From contig CAMDDP010000003.1 in NCBI GenBank assembly GCA_945892775.1, positions 9,432 to 73,431 on the forward strand: 64,000 bases of DNA, given 5' to 3'. How positions within the stretch are numbered: the first letter of the stretch is position 1; each line of letters starts with the position of its first letter. This stretch comes from Chitinophaga pinensis. GTDB lineage: Bacteria; Bacteroidota; Bacteroidia; Chitinophagales; UBA10324. Below the pieces are notes generated by a model, which was not told where the DNA came from, did no database searches, and was given only the letters and a program-made list of their open reading frames with translations. Positions 18,503 through 62,600 of this stretch are shown one piece after another. The translations under genes and the position numbers were made by a program.

Positions 18503-18910
18503 TAACTGCTGCGGGGAAGATTGTCGCCTCAATTAATTTTGGGGAGGAAAGTCCGGACAGCATAGCGCGCCGCACCACCTAACAGGTGGAACTTCATTGA
18601 GAAATTGATGAAGGATAGCAAGTACCACAGAAAATAACTACCAGCTGAAGTTTTTACTCCGGTCGGAAAAGATGAAAACGGGAGGTAAAAGCTCCCGGTG
18701 ATTGATTGCAAAATCTTTCACGGGTAAACCTTGCGGGCTGAAAGGCCAAATAAATTCTGTTCAAGAGTTGCTCGCTCTTTCTCCAACGAAAGTTGGAAGC
18801 AGAACGGGTTGGCTGCTCGATTTCGGTTGCGAAACCGAAACCAGATAAATGACAATGCTTCTGATGAAAATCAGAATACAGAATCCGGCTTATGCACCCG
18901 CAGCAGTTAT
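18503..18910 (+). ncRNA. rnpB: RNase P RNA, bacterial type A
   Basis: Universal P4 elements 'GAGGAAAGTCCGGAC' (18544-18558) and 'ACAGAATCCGGCTTA' (18878-18892). P1 pairing is 'aactgctgcggg' with 'cccgcagcagtt'. Ends are approximate to +/-5 nt. Confidence 0.9.
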
Positions 18911-20344: not shown

Positions 20345-21499
20345 TCACAATTCCTTCAACTTATCAATTGCCTTTTGCTTGTAAGCAGATTCTATTTTAG
20401 ATAAATCGGCTAATACAGTTTTGGCTTTATCTTTTTTATTCAGGTTAATTAACAGAAATGCTTTTTCCCACATGGCCTGTGGCTTTAATTCATTATTCAA
20501 TTTTATCAGCTCATCTAATTTCTCAATTGCTTTTTCTTTTTCACCTGATGATTTGTACTGCATGGCCTGATTAAATAAATCAGATGGAACATCTATTGAA
20601 ACTGAATCAGAAATTGATTGGTCTCTTGATTTTGTATAACCGCCACTTGGAATTTTGTCTTTTTCATTTTTGTTTTTTTTACCTGATGTGATTTCTACTT
20701 CTTCCTGGTTCAACGAGGGTGACAATTGCGGCGATGAACCTGAAGAAAAAGAATTGCTGGGTGAAAAACTTAACTGGTCGGTAGTTAGTGTAACAGTCTG
20801 AGGCGATGTAATTGATTTGGTTGAAACATCCAGATCATTTTTCTGATCAAGCTTATCTCCAACCAATGGTTCGTAATTTTCTTCAGCGGTTTTATTTACA
20901 GTCGGTGGAGAAACATCGACGACCAAATTGTCATTCGATATTGACTGATTTTCATCTTTTGGAAGATTTTTAAAAACAAATCCTCCAACTGGTTGTTGGC
21001 CTGGTACTTTTACATCTTCAATTGGTTTTCCATTACCAACAGGCTGTGTAACCTTGATTTTTTCTTTATCATAAATGGAATCTTTTTTATAATGAATACC
21101 GTCCACTGATTTCTCCAAATCCGATTTTTTCTCTGCAAAATTTTGTGCAACCTCCTGATGTTTTTGATTCATGAATTCATTCAGAAAAAATGCACCGATA
21201 ATTACAACAATAAGTACTGCAGCAACAGCCATAGAGCGCTTCATCATCATAATTAACACCGGATTTTCTTTTAATCTTCTGCTGATTCTGTTATCAATTT
21301 TAACGAGCGACTCATTTGTTTCAGTCTCGGATAACAACCTTAAACCATCAATTGCTTCTGTACACAATTCGCAATCTACCAGATGCAATTCCACTCGACG
21401 CAAACGATTGCCTGCTAACCTGTCGGCCAAGTAATCCTGCATTTCATTACGGGACAGGCAGAGCTGCTCCTGCATTATATTTTTAAACTCGTCACTCAT
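20345..21499 (-). CDS. anti-sigma factor (zf-HC2), single-pass membrane protein with Ser/Pro-rich linker and C-terminal TPR-like region
   Basis: 'HLVDCELCTEAIDG' is the H-x3-C-x2-C zinc motif. TM helix 'MAVAAVLIVVIIGAFFL'. Overlaps the sigma gene by 8 nt (ATGAGTGA). Confidence 0.65.
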   Translation of the reverse strand: MSDEFKNIMQEQLCLSRNEMQDYLADRLAGNRLRRVELHLVDCELCTEAIDGLRLLSETETNESLVKIDNRISRRLKENPVLIMMMKRSMAVAAVLIVVIIGAFFLNEFMNQKHQEVAQNFAEKKSDLEKSVDGIHYKKDSIYDKEKIKVTQPVGNGKPIEDVKVPGQQPVGGFVFKNLPKDENQSISNDNLVVDVSPPTVNKTAEENYEPLVGDKLDQKNDLDVSTKSITSPQTVTLTTDQLSFSPSNSFSSGSSPQLSPSLNQEEVEITSGKKNKNEKDKIPSGGYTKSRDQSISDSVSIDVPSDLFNQAMQYKSSGEKEKAIEKLDELIKLNNELKPQAMWEKAFLLINLNKKDKAKTVLADLSKIESAYKQKAIDKLKEL

Positions 21500-22073
21500 T
21501 GTTCTGACTTAACATTATTTTCAAATTTCTTTTTCCATTCTGAATAAAACTTTTTACCTCCAGCATTGAATATCCTGTTTGATCCACTATTTCCTGATAC
21601 GATTTTTCCTGGAGATAAAACAATTCCACACAAATTTTTTGTCCTTCTTTTAATTGCATCAGTGCACCATTCATCTCTTCTAGTTTTGCGTTTTTCCAGT
21701 TTTCATTATCAAGAGGCGAAGATTGTTCGTTTTCCATAATCACAGGAAAATCTTTATTCATTTCCTTCTGATTCTTAAAATGTGATTGCTGTTTACGCAA
21801 AAGGTACAGGCAATGATTTTTTGCAACAGTATGAATCCAAAATTTGAATTCGTTCACTTCATATTGGTGTAACTGCACCAATAATTTTTCAAAAACCTGC
21901 ATCGTGGCATCTTCTGCCTCATCACGATTTTTTAAATACTTCATGCAAACTCCAAGAACCAAGTGCACGTATCGCTGATACAACACCGCAATCACCTGCT
22001 TATCCGCCGTGCTTCGATAATGTAACAACAATTGCTTGTCATCTAATTCATTTATGGAGTGAACTTTTTCCAA
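21492..22073 (-). CDS. RNA polymerase ECF-type sigma-70 factor
   Basis: Region 2 'LYQRYVHLVLGVCMKYLKNRDEAEDATMQVF' and region 4 'ELFYLQEKSYQEIVDQTGYSMLEVKSFIQNGKRNL'. The only available start is TTG at 22073, directly after an in-frame stop. Confidence 0.8.
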   Translation of the reverse strand: MEKVHSINELDDKQLLLHYRSTADKQVIAVLYQRYVHLVLGVCMKYLKNRDEAEDATMQVFEKLLVQLHQYEVNEFKFWIHTVAKNHCLYLLRKQQSHFKNQKEMNKDFPVIMENEQSSPLDNENWKNAKLEEMNGALMQLKEGQKICVELFYLQEKSYQEIVDQTGYSMLEVKSFIQNGKRNLKIMLSQNNE

Positions 22074-22627
22074 TCAGGTTTGAAAAATAGTTGTTGAAAG
22101 GAAACCTTCCTAATTAGATCCAAAACAAATCTTAAACTCACGCCGTGTCTCACCGCAGTAGTGCAAAAAACGTGGGGTGAACACGATGGGGGAGAAATCA
22201 TGGCAATTATCTGAATGCATTCTAAAACAGAAAAATGGTTTCTGTTGTAGTTCAAAGCAAAAATAAATGGAATAAATCCGACTTCGATAAAAATGAAAAT
22301 AATTCCGCTAATTTCTTCCCACCTCCATCCAACAATTAAAAGAATTAGAAACTGATGAAAAGTATTGCTGGAATGCAAATTATTCTCGGGAGCCAGTGAA
22401 ATATCTTTTGCATTGAAAATTATTTTTATAAATCAAATTAGCAGCAAATTTTTTGAAAATGATTGTTGTCAGATTTGGAGTTGCAACAATCGAAAACCTG
22501 CATGCTATGTGACCCTAATTGTTTTAAATTTTAATTACCCCATTAAATCACTGCCGGAACAATTATTTCATTATCTCATTTATGGAATCCCGCAACCTTC
22601 TGCATCTCCTATCCAAATTCATTATTT

Positions 22628-25600
22628 ATGAAAACGAAAATCAATTACACACTGCCTCTGCTGATTTCAGTTGCACTGTTTGCTTTCAGTTTGCTGCAGG
22701 CAACTGGAGTTATTAATGTTGTTACTGACCCGAAGCTCGATACGCTCGAGCAAAAAATTTCGGCGCGCGAAAAAGATTATCCCGAAGACCGGATTTATCT
22801 CACCACCAACCAACCCATTTATTCGCCGGGCGAACAAATCTGGTTCAGCGCTTTTGTGCGCAACGGAAGCACGCTTAAGCCCTCACTAAAAAGCGATATC
22901 GTGCACATCGAATTAATTAATCCTGCCGGAAAAGTTCAGCAAACGATGAAGCTGATTTCGCGCGATGGTTATTGTTCGGGCGATTTATCCATTGCGGCAT
23001 CGTTGCCCGGCGGTTATTACAAACTGCGTGCTTACACCAACTGGATGCTGAACGAAAGCGACTCAGCAGGATATACAAAAGAAGTCCTCATATCGAAAGT
23101 GATATTGCCACGATTGAAAATGAATCTCACATACGATAAAGACAGTTACACTAAAGGCGAAGAAGTGCTCGCAAAATTTTCAGCAAGCACCAATCAGAAT
23201 CTTCCGCTTACTGCAAAAAGTTTTTCGTATGAAATTCAAATGGACGGAACGAAAATAAAAGAGGGCACATCCACCACCGGAAATGATGGAGTGATGTTCG
23301 TGCGTTACAATCTCCCAGAGAAAATCAAATCGAAAGATGCGCTGATGATTGTGAAACTCGATTTCGAAGGAACCACTGAAAGTATTTCGCGCAGCATTCC
23401 TATTTCGATGAGCAATTTATCTCTCCATTTTTTTCCTGAAGGCGGTGATATGGTTGACGGATTGCCTGGCAGAATTGCATTCAGAGCGAAGGATGAATTC
23501 GAAAAAGCAATTTCAGTGGAAGGAATTGTAAAAGATTCGAAAGGAAATAAAGTCGCCGACTTCACCACTTTCCATAAAGGCATGGGTGCATTCACCATGA
23601 TGCCGGTGAAGGGAGAAACTTACACTGTTACACTCACCAAGCCCGAAGGAGTTGAAAAAACTTTTTCGTTGCCCAATGCAGTGGCTGCGGGTTTCAATGT
23701 GGAACTGAGCACAGAGAAAAATGCAGTGAACGCAACACTCCGCTCCACCGGAACATTTAAAGTTTACACTGTTGCAATGGTTCGTGGCAAAGTGTGTTAC
23801 AGTAATTCTCAATTGGTTTCAGAAGGAGAAAATCACATCGAGATTCCGACTGCGAATTTCCCGATGGGAGTTGCGCAGGTTACTTTCTTCGACCAGCAAA
23901 TGATTCCGCGTTGCGAAAGATTGGTGTTTGTGAATCGCGAGCGACAACTGAATGTCTCAATCAAAACCGATAAAGATGAATATCAAACACGCGATCGTGT
24001 GCATGTAACAGTGCGCACCACGGATGAAAATGGAATTCCGGTTCCTGCAATTCTTTCGGTGAAAGCAGTGAACGACCAACTCATGAATTTCGCTGACGAT
24101 AAATCAGGAAACATTTTAACAGCCATGCTGCTCGAAGGTGATTTGAAACAAAAAGTGGAAGAATCGAATTTTTATTTCGACAAAGCAGAAGCGAAAGGCG
24201 CAGAAGCTCTTGACTATTTACTGATGACAAGCGGATGGAGAAGATTCAGTTGGAAGCAAATTCTGAAAGATGAAAAACCTATCGTGCGCTACAATGGAGA
24301 AAAAGCAAATGTGATAATCACCACTTATGATGGATACACCGGAAAAATTTTGCCGAACACTAAAATCAAAATCGGAAATAGCAGAGCAGAATATTTCACT
24401 GATGCAAACGGAAAAGTAATTTTCAACAAACTGAATTTGTATGAACCCGTCAACATCACTGCCAGCTTAGATGATTACACGCCTGCAACAACACAAATTG
24501 TTGATTACAACGAAAACCTCGGCATCTGGCTATACAATCCGAAGAACGAGGTTTACATGTATAAAGATGCTCCGGATATGCGCGAAGAAAATATTCAGCT
24601 CGCACCACAAATGAATTTTGCAGCACCAATGGGCGGAATGGTAATGGATGAAGTGATGATGATTGGAAACGGAAAAGCCGGGAAGAAAAACAAGGGCTTC
24701 GACGCTGAAGGAGACATGGTAGTGAATGAAATAAAATTCACGCCGCCTATTGAAACAAAAACAGGTGCAAACAAAGACGAGAACAAAAACGGCGAACAAG
24801 TGATTGACCAACGCTTACTCGGAATTCTTGCAGCCGATTCTATTGCAGTAAAAGATCTGAACAACAATCAGGCATACTACCGCACACGCGAGTTCCCGCA
24901 AAAATCCTATTCATCAAAAACTCCGGAGAAGAGAACCGACTTTGCTTCCACACTTTATTTCAACGGCGCAGTGGAAACCGATTACAGCGGCAAAGCAGAT
25001 TTCACTTTCACCACTAACGATTTAATTTCTTCCTTCCGGATTATTGCCGAAGGAATCGGCGATGATGGATTAGTTGGCAGAGGAGAAAAATTATTCTTCA
25101 CTCAATTACCATTCAGCATCTCTGCAAAAATCCCCGGCACACTTACAGGTGGCGACCAAATGCAATTGCCCATTGTGCTGAAGAACAACACACTCCGCAA
25201 TCTCACCGGAAAATTATCTGTTCACTTCTCACAAAAAATATTGAATGGAAATGTTGGCGATACATCCATTGCCATTGCCGCACAAAGCACAAAAGTTATT
25301 TACTGGAACATGAGCGCACACGACACCATTGCGAACGACACCATTCAACTCGCATTTGTAACCGAAGGACTCAGCGACGAAACCACAGTGCCTGTTGCCG
25401 TTGACTCCAAAGGATTTCCGGTGCAGCAATCATTCAGCGGTCGCGACCTTGAGAAAAATTTCAAGTTCAGTTTTAAAGATGCACTAAAGGGAAGTTTAAA
25501 AGTTTCTCTCACTGCTTATCCATCAACTGTCAGCACATTGCTGGGTGGTTTGTCAGGATTGTTGCGCATGCCCGGCGGATGTTTTGAGCAAACAAGCATG

Positions 25601-26998
25601 AGCTCTTATCCTAATGCCATGATCATGAATTATCTGAAAGCCAGTGAGAGTGGCGATGAAGCAACTTATGCGCACGCAAAAGAATTATTGAAAGCCGGTT
25701 ATGAGAAACTCGTAACATTTGAAACAAAGCAAAAAGGTTACGAGTGGTTTGGCTCTGCACCCGGGCACGAAGCACTCTCAGCTTATGGGTTGATGCAGTT
25801 TGCTGATTACAAAAAATTATATGCCGGTGTGGATGAAGGAATGGTTACACGAACTGCCGACTGGCTTTTCGCGCGGCGCGATGGCAAGGGCGGATACCAG
25901 CGCAATGATAAAGCCTGCGATTATTTCGGTCGCGCCAGTGAAGACATCACAAACCTTTACATCACTTATGCGCTCAGCGAAGCGGGTTACAAAAATCTGC
26001 AGCAGGAAGTTGACTATGCATACACGACAGCAAAAGCCAGCGACGATAATTATTTGATTGCATTAGCGGCCAACACACTTTACAATATGAAAGACAACAC
26101 ACGCGGCGATGCACTGCTCACAAAAATTCTGGGCAAACAAAAAGAAGACGGTAGCTTCGATGGAAAAACACAAAGCATTGTTTGCTCCGGCGGTCAGTCG
26201 CTCACCACCGAAACATCATCGCTTTCGTTGCTCGCCATTCTTGCCAGCGCTAATCCAAGCTATCAGGCAACACAAAAAGTTGCCGAGTTCCTCACCAAGC
26301 AGCGCAGCGGCTATGGCGAATGGGGAAACACACAGGCAACTATACTCGCACTCAAGGCGCTCAGCAAATTCAGTTTGTTCAACAAGCGCGCACCCGAGAG
26401 CGGCACCATTCAGTTTCTGCTCGATGATGTGCAGATTGCCGAAGTCAACTTTGCCGCAGGCGATAACAAACCCGTGGAAATAAAAGGTCTCGAAAAATTC
26501 ATAAACGAAGGCGACCACGATTTAAAAATCCGTTACAAAGGTTGCAAGGTCGCCATGCCTTACAGCATCAGCATCACTTACAACATTGCCACACCCAAGA
26601 GTGCGAAAGATTGCAATGTGAGTTTGAACACATCGCTCGCCACCAACACCTGCAAAGTCGGTGACAATGTGCGGCTCAGTGTTACACTCAAAAATGAAAC
26701 TGCTGGCGGCTTACCTTCTACCATGGCCATTGTAGGAATACCAGCGGGCTTGAGTTTGCAGCCGTGGCAGTTAAAAGAGCTGAAAGACAAAAAAGAATTC
26801 GACTACTTCGAAATCATGAACAACAACCTCGTGCTCTACTACCGCCAGATGAAACCAAGTGAAGTGATAGAATTAAATTTCGATTTAAAAGCCGAAGTGC
26901 CCGGCACATTTGAACCGCAGGCAAGCGACAGCTACTTGTATTACACAAGTGAGTTTAAATGTTGGACCAAGGCGGAAAAAATTACCATAACAAAATAG
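22628..26998 (+). CDS. alpha-2-macroglobulin / thioester-containing protein (TEP) family, secreted
   Basis: Signal peptide without Cys. MG-like 'YLTTNQPIYSPGEQIWFSAFV'. Thioester motif 'PGGCFEQTSM' (Cys985, nt 25580-25591). A2M_comp-like 'QRSGYGEWGNTQATILALKAL'. C-terminal receptor-domain-like 'NNLVLYYRQMKPSEVIELNFDLKA'. Confidence 0.8.
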   Translation: MKTKINYTLPLLISVALFAFSLLQATGVINVVTDPKLDTLEQKISAREKDYPEDRIYLTTNQPIYSPGEQIWFSAFVRNGSTLKPSLKSDIVHIELINPAGKVQQTMKLISRDGYCSGDLSIAASLPGGYYKLRAYTNWMLNESDSAGYTKEVLISKVILPRLKMNLTYDKDSYTKGEEVLAKFSASTNQNLPLTAKSFSYEIQMDGTKIKEGTSTTGNDGVMFVRYNLPEKIKSKDALMIVKLDFEGTTESISRSIPISMSNLSLHFFPEGGDMVDGLPGRIAFRAKDEFEKAISVEGIVKDSKGNKVADFTTFHKGMGAFTMMPVKGETYTVTLTKPEGVEKTFSLPNAVAAGFNVELSTEKNAVNATLRSTGTFKVYTVAMVRGKVCYSNSQLVSEGENHIEIPTANFPMGVAQVTFFDQQMIPRCERLVFVNRERQLNVSIKTDKDEYQTRDRVHVTVRTTDENGIPVPAILSVKAVNDQLMNFADDKSGNILTAMLLEGDLKQKVEESNFYFDKAEAKGAEALDYLLMTSGWRRFSWKQILKDEKPIVRYNGEKANVIITTYDGYTGKILPNTKIKIGNSRAEYFTDANGKVIFNKLNLYEPVNITASLDDYTPATTQIVDYNENLGIWLYNPKNEVYMYKDAPDMREENIQLAPQMNFAAPMGGMVMDEVMMIGNGKAGKKNKGFDAEGDMVVNEIKFTPPIETKTGANKDENKNGEQVIDQRLLGILAADSIAVKDLNNNQAYYRTREFPQKSYSSKTPEKRTDFASTLYFNGAVETDYSGKADFTFTTNDLISSFRIIAEGIGDDGLVGRGEKLFFTQLPFSISAKIPGTLTGGDQMQLPIVLKNNTLRNLTGKLSVHFSQKILNGNVGDTSIAIAAQSTKVIYWNMSAHDTIANDTIQLAFVTEGLSDETTVPVAVDSKGFPVQQSFSGRDLEKNFKFSFKDALKGSLKVSLTAYPSTVSTLLGGLSGLLRMPGGCFEQTSMSSYPNAMIMNYLKASESGDEATYAHAKELLKAGYEKLVTFETKQKGYEWFGSAPGHEALSAYGLMQFADYKKLYAGVDEGMVTRTADWLFARRDGKGGYQRNDKACDYFGRASEDITNLYITYALSEAGYKNLQQEVDYAYTTAKASDDNYLIALAANTLYNMKDNTRGDALLTKILGKQKEDGSFDGKTQSIVCSGGQSLTTETSSLSLLAILASANPSYQATQKVAEFLTKQRSGYGEWGNTQATILALKALSKFSLFNKRAPESGTIQFLLDDVQIAEVNFAAGDNKPVEIKGLEKFINEGDHDLKIRYKGCKVAMPYSISITYNIATPKSAKDCNVSLNTSLATNTCKVGDNVRLSVTLKNETAGGLPSTMAIVGIPAGLSLQPWQLKELKDKKEFDYFEIMNNNLVLYYRQMKPSEVIELNFDLKAEVPGTFEPQASDSYLYYTSEFKCWTKAEKITITK

Positions 26999-27020
26999 TG
27001 TTACAGCATAGTTAAAATAA

Positions 27021-27087
27021 AATGGAGAGACTTGCCACACTGAGCTTGTCGAAGTGTTGTCAAAGCATTGTCTCTCCATTTTTATTT
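27021..27087 (+). terminator. long-loop hairpin plus T-run after the A2M-like gene
   Basis: Perfect 11-bp stem aatggagagac (27021-27031) / gtctctccatt (27070-27080), a 38-nt loop, then 'tttattt'. Confidence 0.55.
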
Positions 27088-27154: not shown

Positions 27155-27189
27155 CAAAAAAAGCCGCAGTATTAGTGCGGCTTTTTCTT
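27155..27189. terminator. bidirectional rho-independent terminator
   Basis: Stem aagccgca (27161-27168) / tgcggctt (27176-27183), flanked by an A-run upstream and a T-run downstream. Sits between convergent genes. Confidence 0.65.
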
Positions 27190-27204: not shown

Positions 27205-27387
27205 TCATGCAGCAATTTTTTTATTCCTGAACATTAAAAACACTCCTATGATACCATGTAATACCCCCGCACAAAGTGCAGTATTGGCTCCAGTAGGATA
27301 TTTATGTTCTAATGCCATTAGTGTTCCGAATAAAATAAATATTATGCAGATTGAAAAGCAGTAAATCATTCCTAATTTATTTTTCAT
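27205..27387 (-). CDS. small hypothetical membrane protein (two TM helices)
   Basis: 60-aa ATG ORF with 'IYCFSICIIFILFGTLMAL' and 'ALCAGVLHGIIGVFLMF'. A terminator lies immediately downstream. No family recognised. Confidence 0.4.
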   Translation of the reverse strand: MKNKLGMIYCFSICIIFILFGTLMALEHKYPTGANTALCAGVLHGIIGVFLMFRNKKIAA

Positions 27388-27839: not shown

Positions 27840-28238
27840 TTAAATAACTACAGTGTTGAGTTTATCAACTGATAATGGTTTTACTAAAAAATTAATTATC
27901 TGTGGAAATTCTTTTGCCCTTCCATAATCCTGTTCATCTAAAGTGGAGGAGAGCATTATTACTTTTGGCTTGGTGTTAATTTCGGGAGCGAGCTTAACAT
28001 ACTCATCCATAAATCCGAAACCATCAATGATGGGCATTCTAATATCCAAAAAAATAACATCGGGTACTTTACTCAAATCGTTAGCAACAACAGTTTTAAA
28101 ATATTCCAACGCATCAACACCAGATGGCATCACAGCAATATTTTGACCGAACCCTGCAATTTCAATCAAACGCTCATGCATCACATTGTTAATCTCATTA
28201 TCATCAATGAGCAAAATATTTTCAAATCTTGCTGACAT
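27840..28238 (-). CDS. stand-alone response regulator receiver domain (CheY-like)
   Basis: 'ILLIDDNEINN', 'DVIFLDIRMPIIDGF' (phospho-acceptor Asp) and 'FLVKPLSVDKL'. 132 aa with no output domain. Confidence 0.85.
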   Translation of the reverse strand: MSARFENILLIDDNEINNVMHERLIEIAGFGQNIAVMPSGVDALEYFKTVVANDLSKVPDVIFLDIRMPIIDGFGFMDEYVKLAPEINTKPKVIMLSSTLDEQDYGRAKEFPQIINFLVKPLSVDKLNTVVI

Positions 28239-28242
28239 TTTT

Positions 28243-30342
28243 TTATTTCAGTTTAACATTTGGAATTTCAAGTTTGAAAGTTGCCCCAACATTCGGAGTT
28301 GAAGTAACTGAAATTTTTCCGTTTATTTTATTTAAAGTTTCTTTTAAAATATAAAGGCCCAATCCAGAACCATTGCCATGCGTTGTTGCCCGATAAAACA
28401 TATCAAATATTTTTGATTGGCATTGTGGTATAATTCCTATGCCATTATCAGCAATTGTTATCTCTACTTTTGATGTAGTTACTACTGCATCAATTGATAA
28501 AAATGGATTAGCTTCATTTTTATTTTGATACTTCAATGCATTTGAAATCAAGTTAGATAATATCACCTTTAATCTGCTCTTATCAGAATAAAATGGAACC
28601 TGCATATTGAAACATAACCGCTTTTCAACTTTATCAGCCCCATCAATAAATTGCACTTCAGCTAGTACCTCCTCGGCAATTTCATGCAAATCAATTTCTT
28701 CAATTTCAACTTCTGTTCGGGTATTTTTAGAATACTCCAAAATTTCTTTAATAGTATTATCCAATGTTGTCACACTGGTTTTCATCATCTCTAAATATTT
28801 TTTCGGTTTTTCATCAGTAATAGTCAACTCCACAATGTCAACCAAGCCAAGCACATTCAAAAGAGGTGCACGCAAATCGTGAGAGGTGCTGTATACAAAT
28901 CGATCTAATTCGGAATTAGTTTTTGTCAATTCTTCATTCTGTATTTTTATTCTTTCCAACGAAAGCTTGTTATCAGAAACGGCCTTGTCTTTTTCCATTA
29001 GCAAACTAATAATATTAACAACCCGTGTAATTATTTCAGATTCCTTTGCCTCAGGTTTTTCCTTTGACACTTGGTAGTAAACCTCAAAAACACCTAGCAC
29101 GCTTCCTGCTTCAGACAAAACAGGATATGAAAAACAAGAGGCTATTTTATATCTTCTTGCATGCACTAAAAAATCTTTCCACTCTTCATTTAACTCAATA
29201 TTATTGCAATAAGAATTACACTTGCTCGCGGCGGCTTTTCCTGAGGAAATTGAGCTAAAACCTATAGGAACCTCACCAATTGATTTTATAAAGTTTTGCG
29301 AAATATTGGGCGCTACATACCAACTAAGTGAATGGGTTTCTTTATTAGTTTTAAGAATAGCACAACGCATTCCAATATTTAATTCTTCCACACTTGTGAC
29401 CAAATGATTTAAAGCTCGAGACAAATCATTATCCTTGGATGCCATCTCCAATACTTGTTTTTCTGAAAGCAATAATTTTTCCATTCTTTTTCGTTCCGAA
29501 ATGTCTGTAATACGTATTTGCAAATGCGGTTTATTTAAATATTCCACTACACGAAATTCCAGGTTGCCCCAAAATATTTTTCCTTTTCGCGTGTGGTATT
29601 CCATTTCCTTTGACCATCCCCAGTTATCCTTTATCTGCTTCTTAATTCTAATAAGTTCCGACTCAGCAAATGGTGTTTTTTGTAATGCAATCGGATCTAA
29701 TCCAACTAAATCATCCATTGAGGAGACTTCAAATAATTCCATTGCTCTTTTATTGCAATTGATAATTTTCATTTCATCCAAATTCGTCATTAAGTTGGCA
29801 TCAGCCGATTCATTAAAAATGTTTCTAAAAAGATTTTCACTCTTTTTTAATTTATCTTGAATGCGAAGTTTTGAACCAAGTGATATGATTGAAATTATTC
29901 CGCCAGTAGCAAAAACTACCACTATCACATCATGTTCCATTTTAGTTTTAACAAATTCCAATACAAAAATTATAGCGAGAAAATTTATAACAATAAAAAG
30001 ATACAATTGTGTCGAGCTTTTAAACACCGTGCAAACAACCATAAAGGTTATGAGCAACATAATCGTGTTATGGACTTCAAAATCACTCCTAAAACATTCT
30101 AAAATACTTTGCCCCATAATTAAATAAGCAGCAAACAAAATAATTCGTGATATATGTTTTTTTATGTGTTCAGTTATAAATGAAAGAAAAACAACTAAAA
30201 ATGTAAGTGCTGCAAAAAATATATTGACATAAAATTGTGTTAAAAATATTAACCCTTGAGAGAAAAAGGTAACGCTGGAAAAAAGATATAATAAGCCTGC
30301 TGCTAAAAGCAATATTCTACCTACAGCAATCTCATTATCCAT
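28243..30342 (-). CDS. sensor histidine kinase (multi-TM N-terminus, PAS, GAF-like, HisKA, HATPase_c)
   Basis: H-box 'STSHDLRAPLLNV', N-box 'LISNALKY', G-boxes 'DNGIGI' and 'GSGLGLYI'. About 6 hydrophobic helices at the N-terminus. ATG at 30342; a TTG alternative lies at 30399. Confidence 0.85.
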   Translation of the reverse strand: MDNEIAVGRILLLAAGLLYLFSSVTFFSQGLIFLTQFYVNIFFAALTFLVVFLSFITEHIKKHISRIILFAAYLIMGQSILECFRSDFEVHNTIMLLITFMVVCTVFKSSTQLYLFIVINFLAIIFVLEFVKTKMEHDVIVVVFATGGIISIISLGSKLRIQDKLKKSENLFRNIFNESADANLMTNLDEMKIINCNKRAMELFEVSSMDDLVGLDPIALQKTPFAESELIRIKKQIKDNWGWSKEMEYHTRKGKIFWGNLEFRVVEYLNKPHLQIRITDISERKRMEKLLLSEKQVLEMASKDNDLSRALNHLVTSVEELNIGMRCAILKTNKETHSLSWYVAPNISQNFIKSIGEVPIGFSSISSGKAAASKCNSYCNNIELNEEWKDFLVHARRYKIASCFSYPVLSEAGSVLGVFEVYYQVSKEKPEAKESEIITRVVNIISLLMEKDKAVSDNKLSLERIKIQNEELTKTNSELDRFVYSTSHDLRAPLLNVLGLVDIVELTITDEKPKKYLEMMKTSVTTLDNTIKEILEYSKNTRTEVEIEEIDLHEIAEEVLAEVQFIDGADKVEKRLCFNMQVPFYSDKSRLKVILSNLISNALKYQNKNEANPFLSIDAVVTTSKVEITIADNGIGIIPQCQSKIFDMFYRATTHGNGSGLGLYILKETLNKINGKISVTSTPNVGATFKLEIPNVKLK

Positions 30343-30597
30343 AAAACTTATGGCGTTTCTCCAATACACTATTCGATACTTAAATTGAGATTCAGGCAAT
30401 TTTTGTCTTTTTAATTACCGGCTTATACAAACTGAAAGGAAAATAGTTACCTAAGAACTCAATAATTGCCTAGTTCTAAAAACGTTTTAAAATTCTATTA
30501 ATACATACAATACTAATTAAAATGAGCATAATTTTAAAAATAGCGATGCATTGTAACCCTTTAAAAATAAGATTATTGTAATGTCAAAAGATAATAA

Positions 30598-33360: not shown

Positions 33361-36135
33361 ATGAATAAAATTCTTTTAAAATGCTTTGTTGTTCTGTTCA
33401 CTTGTTGGCTTTCATTTCATTTCTCTTCAACCAATTTGATTAATAGAAATAATTTACAATATGAAGCAATGGAAATTGGTGATGAAGAAAGTGGCTCTCT
33501 TAAGTGGGAACTCATGAGATTAGCCGACCCTTCAACCGGAAAAGTACCTGATCATATTCGGGCACTCGAATTAGAGTTTTCTGCTACCCTACCCAGCGAT
33601 TTAAACATGAGAAGTAGCAACTTCACGAACAGAGGCCCATGGAATGTTGGAGGAAGAACAAGAGCTTTTGCAATGGATATAAATGATACTTCTATTTTAA
33701 TTGCAGGTTCTGTAGCAGGTGATATTTGGCGATCAACTGATGCTGGAAATTTGTGGAACATTGTTTCGACTGATGCAACTCCATTCGGGATTACTTGTTT
33801 AATACAAGATAAAAGAGTTGGACATAATAACACCTGGTATGCTGGAACTGGAGAAGGGTATGGTACAAGCGCAAGCGGTGGTGGAGCATTTTATCTTGGT
33901 GATGGCGTAATGAAATCAACAGATAACGGTGTATCATGGTTCCGTTTGGCCTCAACATCATCAACTAACACAACAGGATTTGATAAAGAATTTGATATTG
34001 TTTGGAGTATGGCAAATGACAATAGTAATGCAACAGATGATGAAGTTTATGCCTCAACTTATGGTCGGTTATATCGGTCAATAAATGGTGGAACATCCTG
34101 GACTTCAGTTTTAGGAAGTTCTTCATCACCTTGTTATTTTACTGATGTACAGGTAACAAGTACGGGTATAGTTTATGTAACTATGAGTGATGATGGCACC
34201 TCAAAAGGTATATGGCGCTCAACTGATGGACTTTCCTTTGTAAATATTTTACCTGATAGTTTTCCAGTCGTTTACAATCGAATAGTAATGGGAATAAATC
34301 CTCAGAATGAAAATGAAATTTATTTTTTAGCAAATACGCCAGGAGCAGGAACTCCAGATACCAATTATGTTGGTAATGTGGAATGGAATTCATTATACAA
34401 ATACAATTATTTGTCAGGTGACGGAAGTGATACAGGTGGCGTTTGGGAAGACCGCTCAATGAATTTACCGACCAATGGCGGACCATTTGATAAATACATG
34501 TGCCAGGGTTCTTATGATATGGCAGTAAGAGTAAAACCTGATGATTCCAATACCGTTTTTATTGCTGGTACAAATATTTATCGCTCAACTACTGCATTTG
34601 CCGACCCGAATAACACCCGATTTGTTGGGGGGTATAAAGAAGGCGCCACACTTCCAGAAGTTGGTATGTATAAAAACCATCATCCCGACCAACATGTTTT
34701 ATTTTTTCATCCTAATAATCCAAATACATTGTTCTCAGCAAATGATGGAGGAATTTTTAGAGCAAATAATTGTATGCAAGATACGGTTCAATGGACCAGC
34801 TTCAATCATGGCTATCTAACTTCCATGTTTTATGCAACAGCGGTTGACAATGCCACTGCAAATGATCCTATAATAATTGCAGGTGCACAAGACAATGGAA
34901 GTTGGTTTACCAATACAACAAATGCAACAACTCCATGGGTTACCCCGCGCGGTGGCGATGGTTCCTACTGCGCAATATCTGATAACAAGGAGGAATTTTA
35001 TTTCAGTATTCAGAATGGTAAAATGATGAAAACAAAGTTGAATACTTCAACTGGAGTAATTGATTCATTTACACGAATTGACCCTATTCCAAAACAAGAT
35101 TATCTTTTTATCAATCCTTACATACTTGACCCTGTTGATAATAATAAAATGTATTTGGCAGGTGGAAACAGATTGTATCGTAATAATGATTTAGCCGGAA
35201 TTCCATATGCAAGCAACTGGGATAGCATTACCACTAACTGGATGTATTTTCCAGATACTGTTGCTGCTCCCAATCAAATTTCAGCCGTGGCCTGCTCTAC
35301 AACACCAGCACATACTGTATACTACGGAACTTCTAAAAAGCAAATTTATAAAGTAGTAAATGCAAATACCGGAACACCAACAAGAACAACCATTACATCA
35401 ACCTCCTCCACTGCAATTTTTCCTGCATCAGGCTATATAAACTGTATTGCTGTTGATCCCCATAATGCTGATAAATTAATGGTTGTGTTTTCAAATTACA
35501 ATGTGTACAGTTTATTTTATTCTGAAAATGGAGGAACAACTTGGAAAAAAACTGCTGGAAATCTAGAAGCCTATATTTCAGGAAGTGGAAATGGGCCATC
35601 ATTACGATGGGCCAGCTTTCTGCATCTGGCTGATGGTAATACCGCCTACCTTGTGGCAACCAGCATTGGATTATTTGCAACTGACAAATTAGAAAGTGAC
35701 AGCACCGTTTGGGTAAAGCAAGCAACAAATACCATTGGCAATTCAGTTTGTGACATGATTGTCACTCGTGAAATTGATGGGTTAGTTGTGATTGCAACAC
35801 ATTCACGAGGAATTTTTTCAGCTAATATTACAAGCATAAATGATATTGCAACTATAAAAAATATTAAAGAGAAAATTGTTTCTGTAGCCATCTATCCAAA
35901 TCCAACTTCAACACAAAGCAGTATTGTTATTCAATCGAAACAAAATGCAATTGTAAAAATTGAATTGCTTGATTTATTTGGAAGGAAAACACAAAATGTT
36001 TTTAACGGAAATCTATCTCCAGGTGAAAATAAATTCCAATTGAATGTTCAAGCCTATCCCTCAGGAATATACTTTTGTAAAATCAGCTCTGAGTATTTTG
36101 AGAAAGTTATTCCGGTGAGTATCGTGAGGGAATAA
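33361..36135 (+). CDS. BNR/Asp-box repeat (sortilin-VPS10 / GH74-like beta-propeller) protein with T9SS C-terminal sorting domain
   Basis: Asp-box motifs 'STDAGNLW', 'STDNGVSW', 'SINGGTSW' and 'SENGGTTW'. C-terminal 'IYPNPTSTQSSIVI...GIYFCKISSEYFEKVIPVSIV' fits a T9SS CTD. Confidence 0.7.
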   Translation: MNKILLKCFVVLFTCWLSFHFSSTNLINRNNLQYEAMEIGDEESGSLKWELMRLADPSTGKVPDHIRALELEFSATLPSDLNMRSSNFTNRGPWNVGGRTRAFAMDINDTSILIAGSVAGDIWRSTDAGNLWNIVSTDATPFGITCLIQDKRVGHNNTWYAGTGEGYGTSASGGGAFYLGDGVMKSTDNGVSWFRLASTSSTNTTGFDKEFDIVWSMANDNSNATDDEVYASTYGRLYRSINGGTSWTSVLGSSSSPCYFTDVQVTSTGIVYVTMSDDGTSKGIWRSTDGLSFVNILPDSFPVVYNRIVMGINPQNENEIYFLANTPGAGTPDTNYVGNVEWNSLYKYNYLSGDGSDTGGVWEDRSMNLPTNGGPFDKYMCQGSYDMAVRVKPDDSNTVFIAGTNIYRSTTAFADPNNTRFVGGYKEGATLPEVGMYKNHHPDQHVLFFHPNNPNTLFSANDGGIFRANNCMQDTVQWTSFNHGYLTSMFYATAVDNATANDPIIIAGAQDNGSWFTNTTNATTPWVTPRGGDGSYCAISDNKEEFYFSIQNGKMMKTKLNTSTGVIDSFTRIDPIPKQDYLFINPYILDPVDNNKMYLAGGNRLYRNNDLAGIPYASNWDSITTNWMYFPDTVAAPNQISAVACSTTPAHTVYYGTSKKQIYKVVNANTGTPTRTTITSTSSTAIFPASGYINCIAVDPHNADKLMVVFSNYNVYSLFYSENGGTTWKKTAGNLEAYISGSGNGPSLRWASFLHLADGNTAYLVATSIGLFATDKLESDSTVWVKQATNTIGNSVCDMIVTREIDGLVVIATHSRGIFSANITSINDIATIKNIKEKIVSVAIYPNPTSTQSSIVIQSKQNAIVKIELLDLFGRKTQNVFNGNLSPGENKFQLNVQAYPSGIYFCKISSEYFEKVIPVSIVRE

Positions 36136-41360: not shown

Positions 41361-41434
41361 GGTGGTCGATGGGTTTTGAACCCACTACCCTCAGATCCAC
41401 AAACTGATGCTCTACCGATTGAGCTACGACCACC
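41361..41434 (-). tRNA. tRNA-His (anticodon GTG) with encoded G-1
   Basis: Folded by hand. G-1; acceptor GTGGTCG/CGACCAC; D-arm GCTC-AATCGGTA-GAGC; anticodon arm TCAGT-TTGTGGA-TCTGA; T-arm GTGGG-TTCAAAA-CCCAT; discriminator C. CCA is not encoded. Confidence 0.9.
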
Positions 41435-50848: not shown

Positions 50849-52972
50849 ATGAATAAATTTTTTGGTGTTTTTCTTTTTGCTTTTTTCATCATTCAAAACA
50901 GCGGTGCTCAAAATATTTCCACTGGAAATGATACCACTATTTGTCAGGGAAGCGGAATGACACTTCATGTTACAATTGATTCTGCTGGCGCTATTACACA
51001 ATTAAATTTGCCCGATGATACATATAGCCTAGTGGTAGACTTAGGGTTTTCCTTTAATTATTATGGCAATGTCTTTACACAGGTATTACTTTCAACCAAT
51101 GTATATATCTATTTTAATATTGGTGAAGCTAGTCAATATTCCGTATGGCCTATCGGAAATGCCATACCTACAACTGCTCCAGGTACACCCCAAAATGCAA
51201 TTATGGGTCCATGGCATGATGTTGATCCGTCAGTCGGTACTACTGGAATTATGAGTTATGCAACTTTTGGTTCTGCACCTAATAGGTACTTTGTTTTTAA
51301 TTTTTGTAATGTTCCTATGTTTTCGTGTAACAACTTATTATTTACAGGTCAAATAATTCTTTACGAAGGAAGTAATATTATCGAAACTCATATTACTGAA
51401 AAAGTAGTTTGTAGTAGCTGGAATGTAGGAGCTGCAATACATGGATTACATGATTCTAATGGTACTTTGGCATCAGTTGTTTTGGGAAGAAATTTCCCAA
51501 CGGTTTGGACAACAACTAATGAAGGCAAACGATTTACCCCTGATGCAATATTTTCAACTTATACAATTGATTCTATTTTGTTTGCTCCTGTACCAATGCT
51601 TGGCAACTTACAGTGGACTGACTTAGCCGGTAATTTTATTAGTAACGATCAGGATGTAACTATTAATCCAACCCAGGCCACAACTTATGTAGTAAGCATG
51701 ACAGATTGTGGTGTTGGATCCGATACAATTACTGTTTTCGTTTCTGAATTTGATACAGTCACTACTTACTTGAATCCACAATGCCCAAATAGTTTTGATG
51801 GATTTATTGAAGCCACATGCACTGGAACAGGTCCTTTTCTTTTTATCTGGAAGAATCAAGCCGGTGTAATTATTCAAACAACTACTTCATCTTCCGGAAA
51901 TGATTCTTTATTAAACTTAGGTCCTGGTACTTATACTATGATTGTTACAGACTCAATTGGGTGTGTAAAACAGCATTCCTTTAGCCTAACAGCTGCAACT
52001 TATAACGCAAATTTTTCATATACTCCAATTATAGCTTGTAAAGGATCCCCTCTAAATTTTAATAATACATCAACAGGAAGTCCAACTTCTTTCAACTGGG
52101 TTTTTGAAGGGGGTGGAAGTTCTAGCCAGGAAAATCCAACTCATACTTTTAATTCAGCCGGAAATTTTAATGTGACTTTTATTGTTTTCTATCCGGGCGG
52201 TTGCAGTGATACTTCTATTCAAACTATTTTGATCCATGAATTAATTAAGGCTGATTTTGATTGGGCACCTCAAAATATTTGTGAAGTTGATACTGTACAA
52301 TTTACTGATAATTCAACCTTATCGCCAATAAGTTGGGCATGGTCTTTTGGAGATGGTTCTTATGGCTCAGGAGCCTCACCCACCCATCAATATACACAGG
52401 GGGATTATATAGTTCAGATGGTAGCATTTGATAGTTTATGCGGTATTGATTCAATTACTAAAAACCTTACTGTTTATTATCAACCTTATCCTGAATTAGG
52501 AAATGATACTTCTGTTTGCAAATATGAATTGCTTTTTATTGATGCTGGATATCCAGGAACAACCTACCAATGGTCAACGGGTGAAACCTCGCAACTAATT
52601 ACACCTCCATTGCAAGATCAGGACACCTATTATACAGTAATTGTAAATAACTTTGGTTGCTTGGGTTATGACACCTTACTTGCTACAATTAATTGTGATG
52701 CGGTCATGCCTTCTGGCTTTTCGCCTAATGGCGATAATGTCAATGATATTTTCAGGCCGCGTGGATTTAGAGTTACACAATATGACATGACAATTTTCAA
52801 CCGATGGGGCGAAATTATTTTTCAAATTAATTCTCCAGATATTGAAGATGGCTGGGATGGAAAATATAATGGTGAAGATGCTGAAATCGGTGTTTATATC
52901 TATTTTATGAATGCTACTTTTATAAATGGAGAGAAAAAATCAATCACTGGAAATGTTACATTGTTAAGATAA
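50849..52972 (+). CDS. large secreted protein: conserved N-terminal domain + PKD-like repeats + T9SS type-B (gliding-motility-associated, CHU_C) C-terminal domain
   Basis: Signal peptide. PKD-like 'FSYTPIIACKGSPLNFNNTSTG...WVFEGGGSS...HTFNSAGNFNVTFIV' occurs twice. C-terminal 'MPSGFSPNGDNVNDIFRPRG...IFNRWGEIIF...WDGKYNG...GVYIYFM'. Confidence 0.75.
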   Translation: MNKFFGVFLFAFFIIQNSGAQNISTGNDTTICQGSGMTLHVTIDSAGAITQLNLPDDTYSLVVDLGFSFNYYGNVFTQVLLSTNVYIYFNIGEASQYSVWPIGNAIPTTAPGTPQNAIMGPWHDVDPSVGTTGIMSYATFGSAPNRYFVFNFCNVPMFSCNNLLFTGQIILYEGSNIIETHITEKVVCSSWNVGAAIHGLHDSNGTLASVVLGRNFPTVWTTTNEGKRFTPDAIFSTYTIDSILFAPVPMLGNLQWTDLAGNFISNDQDVTINPTQATTYVVSMTDCGVGSDTITVFVSEFDTVTTYLNPQCPNSFDGFIEATCTGTGPFLFIWKNQAGVIIQTTTSSSGNDSLLNLGPGTYTMIVTDSIGCVKQHSFSLTAATYNANFSYTPIIACKGSPLNFNNTSTGSPTSFNWVFEGGGSSSQENPTHTFNSAGNFNVTFIVFYPGGCSDTSIQTILIHELIKADFDWAPQNICEVDTVQFTDNSTLSPISWAWSFGDGSYGSGASPTHQYTQGDYIVQMVAFDSLCGIDSITKNLTVYYQPYPELGNDTSVCKYELLFIDAGYPGTTYQWSTGETSQLITPPLQDQDTYYTVIVNNFGCLGYDTLLATINCDAVMPSGFSPNGDNVNDIFRPRGFRVTQYDMTIFNRWGEIIFQINSPDIEDGWDGKYNGEDAEIGVYIYFMNATFINGEKKSITGNVTLLR

Positions 52973-62484: not shown

Positions 62485-62600
62485 AAAGAACCCTCGAAAG
62501 ATTTTATTGGCTATCAAATAAACGATAAACTAAATGAATTATTGAACGATTAAAAACCCTTCATTTGAATCCATTGGATAAATACAATAAATAGAAAAAA

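Follow-up and report, generated by a model that had tools for sequence, protein, structure and literature searches.

What kind of alpha-2-macroglobulin (A2M) is encoded by a bacterial gene that keeps the thioester motif of the family and has neither a lipoprotein signal nor the partner genes known for bacterial A2Ms, and what switches such a gene on? This question is raised by an open reading frame (ORF) at positions 22628-26998 of a 64,000-nt stretch of a Chitinophaga pinensis contig (CAMDDP010000003.1, Bacteroidota; G+C content 34.7%), which as a whole is called the window here. Two bacterial types have been distinguished: Type I carries a CxEQ thioester and is co-expressed with the penicillin-binding protein (PBP) PBP1c, and Type II is thioester-less, belongs to a six-gene mag operon and depends on its five operon partners (PMC5764988). 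A 2026 review gives no further bacterial type (PMC12939704). We read the ORF as the gene of an exported, periplasmic, single-use protease trap, which is the target of a dedicated extracytoplasmic function (ECF) sigma factor and represents a third bacterial A2M variant, and we assign this reading as a whole a probability of roughly 0.6.

The protein is almost certainly a member of the superfamily of A2Ms and thioester-containing proteins (TEP), with a thioester site that looks functional. The gene and its first landmarks are:

22628-26998 (+): coding sequence of a thioester alpha-macroglobulin homologue, 1456 aa, ATG start, from ORF and translation
22628-22702 (+): putative N-terminal export signal of the Sec type, aa 1-25, consisting of MKTK, a hydrophobic stretch and LQA, without Cys; modelled as a helix at aa 8-25
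25580-25591 (+): thioester motif C985-F-E-Q988, invariant in 120 of 120 homologues

The ORF is the longest of its neighbourhood. An earlier reading of this DNA, made from the letters without database searches (hereafter the sequence-only reading), had seen CFEQ about two-thirds along the chain; it is found at 68%, as part of MPGGCFEQ (aa 981-988). Pfam TED_complement (aa 968-1248, E = 3.5e-27) encloses the motif, which thus lies inside a thioester domain and not outside of it. For tests across the family we used the best 120 homologues from a search over 5.8 billion proteins, in which 8000 candidates were scored and 713 of these matched at E <= 1e-10. CFEQ is found in every one of these 120 closest homologues, at an equivalent point of the chain, and P982, G984, C985, F986, E987, Q988, T989 and S990 form invariant columns in an alignment of 58 family sequences. 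Like TED_complement, two more Pfam models, MG2 (aa 55-139, E = 2.6e-15) and A2M (aa 776-863), exceed their gathering scores. Weaker matches are found for A2M_BRD (aa 372-481), CarboxypepD_reg (aa 568-625, E = 0.0033) and A2M_recep (aa 1365-1446, E = 0.0013); among the NCBIfam models, none matches the protein.

The domain layout was derived from two overlapping AlphaFold2 (AF2) models, one of aa 257-1456 (pLDDT 75.8, pTM 0.45) and one of aa 1-800 (pLDDT 79.2, pTM 0.70), in combination with Pfam and profile alignments:

22787-24070 (+): four complete seven-strand beta-sandwich domains of the macroglobulin (MG) type (aa ~54-155, 163-257, 264-347 and 356-435), together with strands one to three of a split MG domain (aa ~442-481), from the strand pattern of the aa 1-800 model and Pfam MG2
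24074-24535 (+): insert in the split MG domain, with a helical sub-domain (aa ~483-546) and a seven-strand CarboxypepD_reg-like beta-sandwich (aa ~561-636), from AF2 and the weak Pfam CarboxypepD_reg match
24560-24892 (+): putative bait, a linker of low complexity predicted to be disordered (aa ~645-755), in which a Met-rich half with 9 Met in aa 643-697 precedes a Lys/Asn/Asp-rich one, from AF2 pLDDT and the family alignment
24953-25528 (+): remainder of the split MG domain, then an MG7-like domain and the first of two CUB-like halves (aa ~776-967), from Pfam A2M, profile alignment and AF2 strands
25529-26371 (+): all-helical thioester domain (TED; aa 968-1248), from Pfam TED_complement, AF2 pLDDT of 80-95 and structure matches to C3d/C4d
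26618-26992 (+): C-terminal beta-sandwich resembling MG8 or a receptor-binding domain (aa ~1331-1455), from the weak A2M_recep match, AF2 and alignment to the human A2M C-terminus

The predicted order is therefore four MG domains, a split MG domain, MG7, a CUB domain with the TED inserted, and MG8. A second CUB-like half is modelled between the helical TED and the C-terminal sandwich, the CUB assignment being made solely from model and alignment. The models agree with the expectation of the sequence-only reading that MG-type sandwiches would follow each other in A2M order around a disordered bait. At the N-terminus, the hydrophobic helix (aa 8-25) is followed by an amphipathic helix at aa 35-50. 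The CarboxypepD_reg-like domain is shared widely, as PF13715 or PF13620 is precomputed for most homologues. The family profile aligns aa 55-169 with MG2 of the C3 beta chain. Because the first sandwich corresponds to MG2 of C3 and the split domain is, by strand counting, the fifth and not the sixth, an equivalent of MG1 appears to be absent.

To which of the known A2Ms is this protein closest? When the single sequence was compared with solved structures, CD109, human A2M, A2ML1 and TEP1 reached E values between about 1e-20 and 1e-13; no match to a bacterial A2M fell below E = 0.01. A profile of the 58-member family finds human A2M at 1.9e-46 (161 bits), CD109 at 7.8e-45 and TEP1 at 1.2e-42 in the PDB, with profile positions 771-1446 aligned to residues 701-1427 of human A2M. 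The Type I proteins of Salmonella and E. coli (4u48, 5a42, 4ziq) are matched at ~2e-10 and 42 bits, over profile positions 790-1087 only. Foldseek, run with the model of aa 257-1456, lists A2ML1 (9.8e-46), frog A2M, CD109, TEP1 and human A2M with E values of ~1e-46 to 1e-41 over 1300-1450 columns; SaA2M and ECAM rank after these metazoan matches, as whole-chain matches at ~7e-39. The likeness to the metazoan proteins, which are the best matches by both sequence and structure, extends to the length (1456 versus 1474 aa), the location of the thioester two-thirds along the chain, the domain order MG7-CUB-TED-CUB-MG8 and a predicted bait in a split MG6. The present protein differs from them in being bacterial with an ECF promoter (see below), in having one N-terminal MG domain fewer by strand count, in the extra beta-sandwich of its bait insert, and in GCFEQ instead of GCGEQ; tetramers, a GPI anchor and receptor binding find no support in the present family. 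The proximity in sequence to animal A2M, CD109 and TEP bears on the old question of how A2Ms came to be present in both bacteria and animals.

Before a new variant is considered, the known bacterial types have to be weighed. The protein might be a normal ECAM-like lipoprotein of Type I whose start was mis-called, or else a decayed relic in which CFEQ no longer yields a thioester. It does share CxEQ with Type I, and some homologues have been named automatically 'YfaS (alpha-2-macroglobulin family)'; where any name is given, the others are called 'MG2 domain-containing protein' or 'large extracellular alpha-helical protein'. The ATG at 22628 is, however, the first start codon past an upstream in-frame stop, so that there is no N-terminal extension able to hide a lipobox. 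The first Cys is residue 116, in agreement with the Cys-free signal without lipobox that had been read from the letters. A start mis-called in front of a hidden lipobox was rejected on these two grounds, the in-frame stop before the ATG and the Cys-free aa 1-115. The same holds across the family: all 120 homologues begin with a basic (K/R) N-terminus and a hydrophobic stretch of ~15-20 residues, few have a Cys near the N-terminus, and a convincing lipobox is found in none of them. The hydrophobic stretch ends in a conserved L-x-A, which would suit cleavage by signal peptidase I.

The genomic surroundings speak against Type I as well. A motif of GT51, the glycosyltransferase family of PBP1c, is absent from the whole window and from the flanking ORFs of 84 related loci that we fetched. 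The 10 largest other ORFs of the window include neither a PBP nor a Mag-type protein, which bears out the earlier statement that neither a pbpC nor a mag context is present. PBP-like or mag-like families are also absent among the recurrent neighbours of the related loci, and neither close nor distant homologues are lipoproteins beside pbpC (120 N-termini, 84 loci). As to decay, the full-length ORFs are intact, the motif is invariant and the family counts thousands of clusters. Taken with the weak and partial match to ECAM and SaA2M, the chance that we are dealing with a misread or degenerate Type I protein is negligible.

Likeness to Type I (E. coli ECAM/YfhM and Salmonella SaA2M; 5a42, 4u48) remains: these proteins are also Gram-negative, exported and probably monomeric. 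They have CxEQ in a TED within a CUB domain as well as a bait inserted into an MG domain, and are presumed to capture proteases in the periplasm. According to the literature, the A2Ms of bacteria differ from their eukaryotic counterparts by extra N-terminal domains and by smaller bait domains (PMC12939704). The present protein is ~200 aa shorter than Type I (about 1650 aa) and starts MG2-like without extra N-terminal domains of the MG0/NIE type; within its bait insert, the disordered linker is much longer and a CarboxypepD_reg-like domain is present. Lipobox and pbpC linkage are missing from the family, the profile scores 42 bits against 161 bits to human A2M, and the gene has a dedicated ECF sigma/anti-sigma pair and promoter. 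Membership in Type I was rejected for the missing lipobox and pbpC linkage, the partial 42-bit profile match and the lack of extra N-terminal domains.

With Type II (P. aeruginosa MagD and E. coli YfaS, from magABCDEF-type operons) the family shares export, multiple MG domains and a bait region, and the automatic name 'YfaS' of some homologues points in this direction. Type II membership was rejected: CFEQ is invariant in the present family, mag-like neighbours are missing, and the gene is monocistronic here.

The best reading of the family is thus a third bacterial A2M variant, neither a lipoprotein of the PBP1c-linked Type I nor a thioester-less protein of the Mag-operon Type II. The third genomic context that had been proposed from the letters holds against the two-type scheme (PMC5764988). 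What separates the family is a set of features taken together: a thioester, no lipoprotein anchor, no PBP1c, no apparent MG1, an extra domain with a very long bait, metazoan A2Ms as nearest matches, and an ECF promoter and sigma pair. It is not categorically new as an A2M, since it is a recognisable family member and databases already label relatives as such. The published bacterial alpha-macroglobulins are of two kinds, both studied in Proteobacteria; this third kind is very abundant in environmental Bacteroidota and keeps the thioester, while its anchoring mode, domain layout and bait are different.

The second step concerns function. Protease trapping is probable, though slightly less so than the mode of control discussed further below. 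Cys985 and Gln988 would form a buried thioester, by analogy to ECAM, A2ML1 and human A2M. An endopeptidase that enters the periplasm would cut the exposed linker, which serves as bait; the A2M would then rearrange, and the unmasked thioester would acylate a lysine of the protease. The covalent attachment would tether the protease and block it sterically.

The candidate for the bait had been proposed from its position and low complexity, and both hold. The linker stops just ahead of the Pfam A2M match (aa 776-863), the same placement as the human A2M bait, and has a pLDDT of ~25-35 in both AF2 models. A corresponding segment is found in all 120 homologues between the CarboxypepD_reg-like domain and a conserved YYRxRxF; it measures 86-192 aa (median 128) and is unalignable. 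Position, disorder and hypervariability fit a bait inserted in MG6, as far as the models go.

The sequence-only reading had further called the bait unusually Met-rich, with about ten Met in ~55 residues, and had quoted low-complexity strings, which are present. The count is essentially right: the richest 55-aa window, starting at aa 643, holds 9 of the protein's 40 Met, a value reached in 8 of 5000 shuffles. This enrichment is real; it is not peculiar to the protein. Across the family, Met makes up 5.0% of the linkers and 2.6% elsewhere (1.9-fold), with the linker value higher in 108 of 120 homologues. The first half reaches 7.1% (~2.7-fold) and the second 2.9%. A linker that is Met-rich first and Lys/Asp-rich afterwards is thus a moderate family trait.

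This leads to the idea, offered as speculation in the sequence-only reading, of a redox switch, in which oxidation of the Met residues (e.g., by hypochlorite or peroxide) alters accessibility or cleavage of the bait and so gates the trap under oxidative stress. Oxidation-sensitive Met residues occur in alpha-1-antitrypsin and human A2M, and the statistically real and widely shared enrichment would suit such a role, as would the location of the most Met-rich 40 aa of the entire chain, which lie in the linker in 60 of 120 homologues. Yet the enrichment is modest, no conserved Met motif or spacing was found in the 120 linkers, and the conserved neighbours include no methionine sulfoxide reductase or other redox gene. 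Moreover, Ala, Arg, Asn, Gln, Asp, Glu and Lys are enriched along with Met (Thr, Leu, Ile, Phe, Tyr, Ser and Cys are depleted), so that this composition may be no more than that of a disordered segment open to proteases. We regard the redox switch as purely speculative and very unlikely.

A thioester need not serve a trap. As in complement and TEPs, it might attach to hydroxyls or amines on the cell's own envelope, on peptidoglycan or on a competitor, and mark or cross-link them. By sequence and fold the family is as near to TEP1 and CD109 as to A2M proper, and two of its features, the CarboxypepD_reg-like domain and, in many relatives, a small basic Cys-containing partner (described below), are without counterpart in the known protease-trap A2Ms. 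A catalytic His, as present in C3 and C4B, favours hydroxyl attack. At the corresponding position, near A1096-C1097, no conserved His was seen, judged by eye in a part where the alignment is uncertain. The long, exposed and hypervariable linker is the mark of broad-spectrum bait regions, and no bacterial receptor or effector partner is known. Covalent tagging is hence improbable, if slightly less so than the redox switch, and a protease trap is preferred.

Where would the trap act, and against which proteases? Among the sorting domains of the type IX secretion system (T9SS), neither Por_Secre_tail nor CHU_C is matched in the A2M protein, unlike in other ORFs of the window. We infer a periplasmic location from this absence, given that T9SS cargo is encoded in the same window. 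It can be argued that the trap then mainly guards the periplasm from the cell's own secreted proteases on their way to the T9SS rather than from foreign ones. The family is concentrated in Bacteroidota, a phylum that uses the T9SS, the A2M itself has no sorting domain, and the cargo of the window comprises PKD/CHU_C proteins and an S8 subtilase with Por_Secre_tail (60826-62517). On the other hand, relatives at ~30% identity occur in metagenome-assembled genomes (MAGs) labelled Planctomycetota, Myxococcota and Ignavibacteriales, where a T9SS is not expected. No protease gene is found among the conserved neighbours, and an inducible stress sigma factor suits an external insult better than constant housekeeping. 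We consider a primary role against the cell's own proteases unlikely, although it has the most in its favour of the rival functions weighed here.

As a side observation, four large ORFs of the window carry T9SS sorting domains (Por_Secre_tail or CHU_C), at 33361-36135 (+), 50849-52972 (+), 53036-55174 (+) and 60826-62517 (-). They include the S8 subtilase and a neighbouring pair of PKD-domain proteins. The T9SS-tagged subtilase indicates that the organism exports proteases through the periplasm, which bears on what the A2M protects against.

The last step is the control of the gene, which we hold to be quite probably exerted by an ECF sigma factor. The elements concerned are:

22579-22607 (+): candidate promoter of ECF type, -35 box TTTATGGAAT at 22579-22588 and -10 box TGCATCT at 22601-22607, 21 nt before the ATG, a conserved motif
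21492-22073 (-): ECF sigma factor, 193 aa, divergent, presumed regulator of the A2M gene; Pfam Sigma70_r2 and r4_2, TIGR02937
20345-21499 (-): anti-sigma factor, 384 aa, with a zinc finger HLVDCELC (aa 39-46), a membrane helix (aa ~89-107), a low-complexity periplasmic linker of ~190 aa and C-terminal tetratricopeptide repeats (TPR)

The sigma and anti-sigma genes overlap by 8 nt, which is consistent with a single operon. In NCBIfam, the sigma factor matches TIGR02937 only and no equivalog, and no model matches the anti-sigma factor. Upstream DNA of at least 1.5 kb is available for 70 of the 84 related loci. In 13 of these 70, an orthologous sigma gene (144-376 bits, compared to 17 bits for unrelated ECF sigma factors in the flanks) lies directly upstream in divergent orientation. 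The divergent pair is found beside homologues at 64%, 58% and 44% identity, and not beside two others. With 22.5 ECF sigma factors in an average Bacteroidetes genome (PMC7826278), the chance adjacency of any ECF sigma factor is ~1%. In 12 of the 13 loci we recovered the anti-sigma partner, each time with one hydrophobic helix, a long linker of low complexity and a TPR region at the C-terminus; 8 of the 12 show the H-x3-C-x2-C motif.

A comparison with the closest relative, a locus of 92% identity in a Chitinophagaceae MAG (L005), singles out the same elements. Only two blocks are syntenic with the window, 20394-22116 (anti-sigma and sigma) and 22579-26988 (A2M and 49 nt upstream), while the middle of the spacer and everything downstream of the A2M gene differ. 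The conservation starts at 22579, and the conserved 49 nt contain TTTATGGAAT-N12-TGCATCT. When the upstream regions of the sigma-adjacent loci are aligned, the same two boxes appear at fixed spacing. In 42 of 74 loci, some of them without an adjacent sigma gene, the motif precedes the homologous gene by 40-70 nt. Its strict form, GGAAT-N14-CATC, occurs once in the 64-kb window with both strands taken together, namely upstream of the A2M gene (shuffles: mean 1.2), where TGGAAT-N14-CATC likewise has its single exact match, and 61 times in 1.09 Mb of loci; 43 of these matches are at the upstream position and two more precede split copies of the gene. The consensus of 44 sites is TTTATGGAAT-n-T-N10-TGCATCT, and several other loci match with one mismatch.

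A GGAA-type -35, a short -10 and a fixed spacing are typical of ECF promoters, as judged from the motif itself; the housekeeping promoter of Bacteroidota does not resemble this form. In a scan for the sigma-70 consensus, matches were fewer than in shuffles, and none was found upstream of the A2M gene. It is plausible that the adjacent sigma factor recognises TTTATGGAAT-N12-TGCATCT. An envelope signal would inactivate the anti-sigma factor, the ECF sigma factor would transcribe the A2M gene, and the trap would thus be an inducible effector of envelope defence. In this light the term stand-alone, used for the gene in the sequence-only reading, holds for the absence of pbpC and mag partners and is otherwise misleading, since the sigma/anti-sigma pair is a recurrent orthologous partner, accompanied by a conserved ECF-type promoter. 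The neighbours named there, a sigma/anti-sigma pair and a terminator, are confirmed as an ECF sigma factor, a zinc-finger/TPR anti-sigma factor and two hairpins with T runs.

The arrangement resembles the sigma-W/RsiW and sigma-E/RseA modules in the ECF sigma regions 2 and 4, the co-transcribed anti-sigma factor with H-x3-C-x2-C, one membrane helix and an extracytoplasmic domain, and in the GGAA-type -35, the short C/T-rich -10 and the fixed spacing. It differs in that the conserved target is an alpha-macroglobulin gene, that the sigma factor matches no curated equivalog and that no autoregulatory copy of the motif was found. A full-text literature search pairing ECF sigma factors with macroglobulins gave no relevant report. 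Promoter and cognate ECF pair provide a regulatory handle, which makes the timing of the deployment of the protease trap directly testable; they are also a candidate orthogonal sigma/promoter pair for Bacteroidota genetics. In three of the 13 sigma-adjacent loci (L004 ~5989 (-), L040 ~5498 (-), L054 ~5521 (-)), a strict motif copy is located within the sigma coding sequence, 220-255 nt ahead of where the anti-sigma gene starts. These copies could be internal promoters of the anti-sigma gene or a coincidence of the coding sequence.

The periplasmic linker of the anti-sigma factor is likewise long, disordered and hypervariable. A more far-reaching circuit can be imagined, in which this linker is itself a sensor bait and the sigma factor induces a trap for the very protease that was sensed. 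A foreign endopeptidase, or an escaped one of the cell itself, would clip the anti-sigma linker, and regulated proteolysis would free the ECF sigma factor. The freed sigma factor would fire the TTTATGGAAT-N12-TGCATCT promoter, and the thioester trap would capture the same protease covalently. This detect-and-trap circuit is speculative and improbable as it stands, a little more so than a primary role against own proteases. If true, it would be an inducible loop in bacteria resembling innate immunity, built around an A2M nearer to the animal than to the proteobacterial type.

Several points weigh against the reading of a sigma-controlled, periplasmic protease trap. On the side of regulation, 80% of the 70 loci lack an adjacent sigma gene, the motif is mostly missing upstream of relatives at ~30-36% identity, and sigma factor and promoter appear to be linked by association only. 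No convincing copy of the motif lies upstream of the sigma genes, so that autoregulation is unsupported. On the side of the protein, the N-terminus may be either a cleaved signal or a membrane anchor. The pTM of 0.45 of the 1200-aa model stands for a poor inter-domain geometry, and the burial of the thioester is presumed from its relatives. Formation of the thioester, cleavage of the bait and capture of the protease are likewise all transferred by homology. With one N-terminal MG domain fewer and an extra domain in the bait insert, the mechanism may be unlike that of the known A2Ms.

Among the remaining elements of the locus, the following flank the A2M gene:

22052-22378 (-): ORF of 108 aa with TTG start in the spacer between sigma and A2M genes; partial match to DUF7670 (E = 5e-7, model positions 54-100 of 118)
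~27015-27086 and 27158-27186 (+): two terminator-like hairpins 3' of the stop codon, the first with a U run, the second with an 11-bp stem and a U run; from folding, z-score -4.6

The spacer ORF overlaps the sigma start by 22 nt. In L005 an unrelated ORF of 232 aa is found at this spot and only ~45 nt beside each gene are conserved. The 108-aa ORF is therefore probably an inserted remnant outside the module, and the spacer looks like an insertion hot spot. At the other end, two strong hairpins with U runs after the stop codon indicate that the A2M gene is monocistronic here. They are followed by an ORF-poor gap of 840 nt, in which Rfam finds nothing. Just past the hairpin at 27158-27186 there is a 60-aa ORF, 27205-27387 (-), with two hydrophobic stretches (MKNKLGMIYCFSICIIFILFGTLMALEHKYPTGANTALCAGVLHGIIGVFLMFRNKKIAA) and a weak Pfam hint to CyanoTRADDas_TM (E = 0.004). 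At 27840-30399 (-), further downstream, lie the genes of a 132-aa response-regulator receiver protein and a 718-aa PAS histidine kinase; this pair is probably unrelated to the A2M, since it is not syntenic with the A2M gene in L005. At the gathering threshold, Rfam matches in the window are an RNase P RNA of class A at 18508-18908 (+), with 213 bits, and a tRNA at 41361-41433 (-), and no others.

The only recurrent neighbours across the loci are the sigma factor, the anti-sigma factor and the small secreted Cys protein mentioned above. The gene of the latter (120-230 aa) lies 3' of the A2M gene on the same strand in 31 of 84 loci, 27 times directly downstream, with a median gap of 43 nt (e.g., L003:12509-12904, L004:11069-11527 and L010:10538-10924). 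The protein has a signal peptide, the motif NDPRNP(D/N)CPCHK(Y/L)QK(L/Q)A(D/E)EEY, a low-complexity middle part, a very basic Lys/Arg tail and C-terminal C(Y/F)(K/H)(W/F), and matches neither Pfam nor NCBIfam. Judged by its position and recurrence, it is likely an uncharacterised A2M partner in most of the family. In the window, neither tblastn nor a six-frame motif search found this 'CPCH' gene, which the window's clade does without.

How widespread is the family? The best 120 homologues measure 1440-1565 aa and come mostly from Bacteroidota MAGs. Searched on their own, the N-terminal 614 residues, the part least similar to other A2Ms, match 8,574 representatives of 50%-identity clusters at E <= 1e-10, of which 4,379 reach E <= 1e-30. 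At least 592 genomes carry a relative in GTDB, with one genome counted per species. Among the matches listed, L005 is the closest, most relatives belong to Chitinophagales, Sphingobacteriales, Cytophagales and Saprospiraceae, and at ~30% identity there are relatives in MAGs that bear the labels Planctomycetota, Kofleriaceae and Ignavibacteriales. Some relatives (P0185, P0189, P0219, P0240) are larger, with 1750-1860 aa. The N-terminal half of our protein matches them at about residues 880-1530, split into two or three segments, so that some members may carry large N-terminal extensions or duplicated arrays of MG domains.

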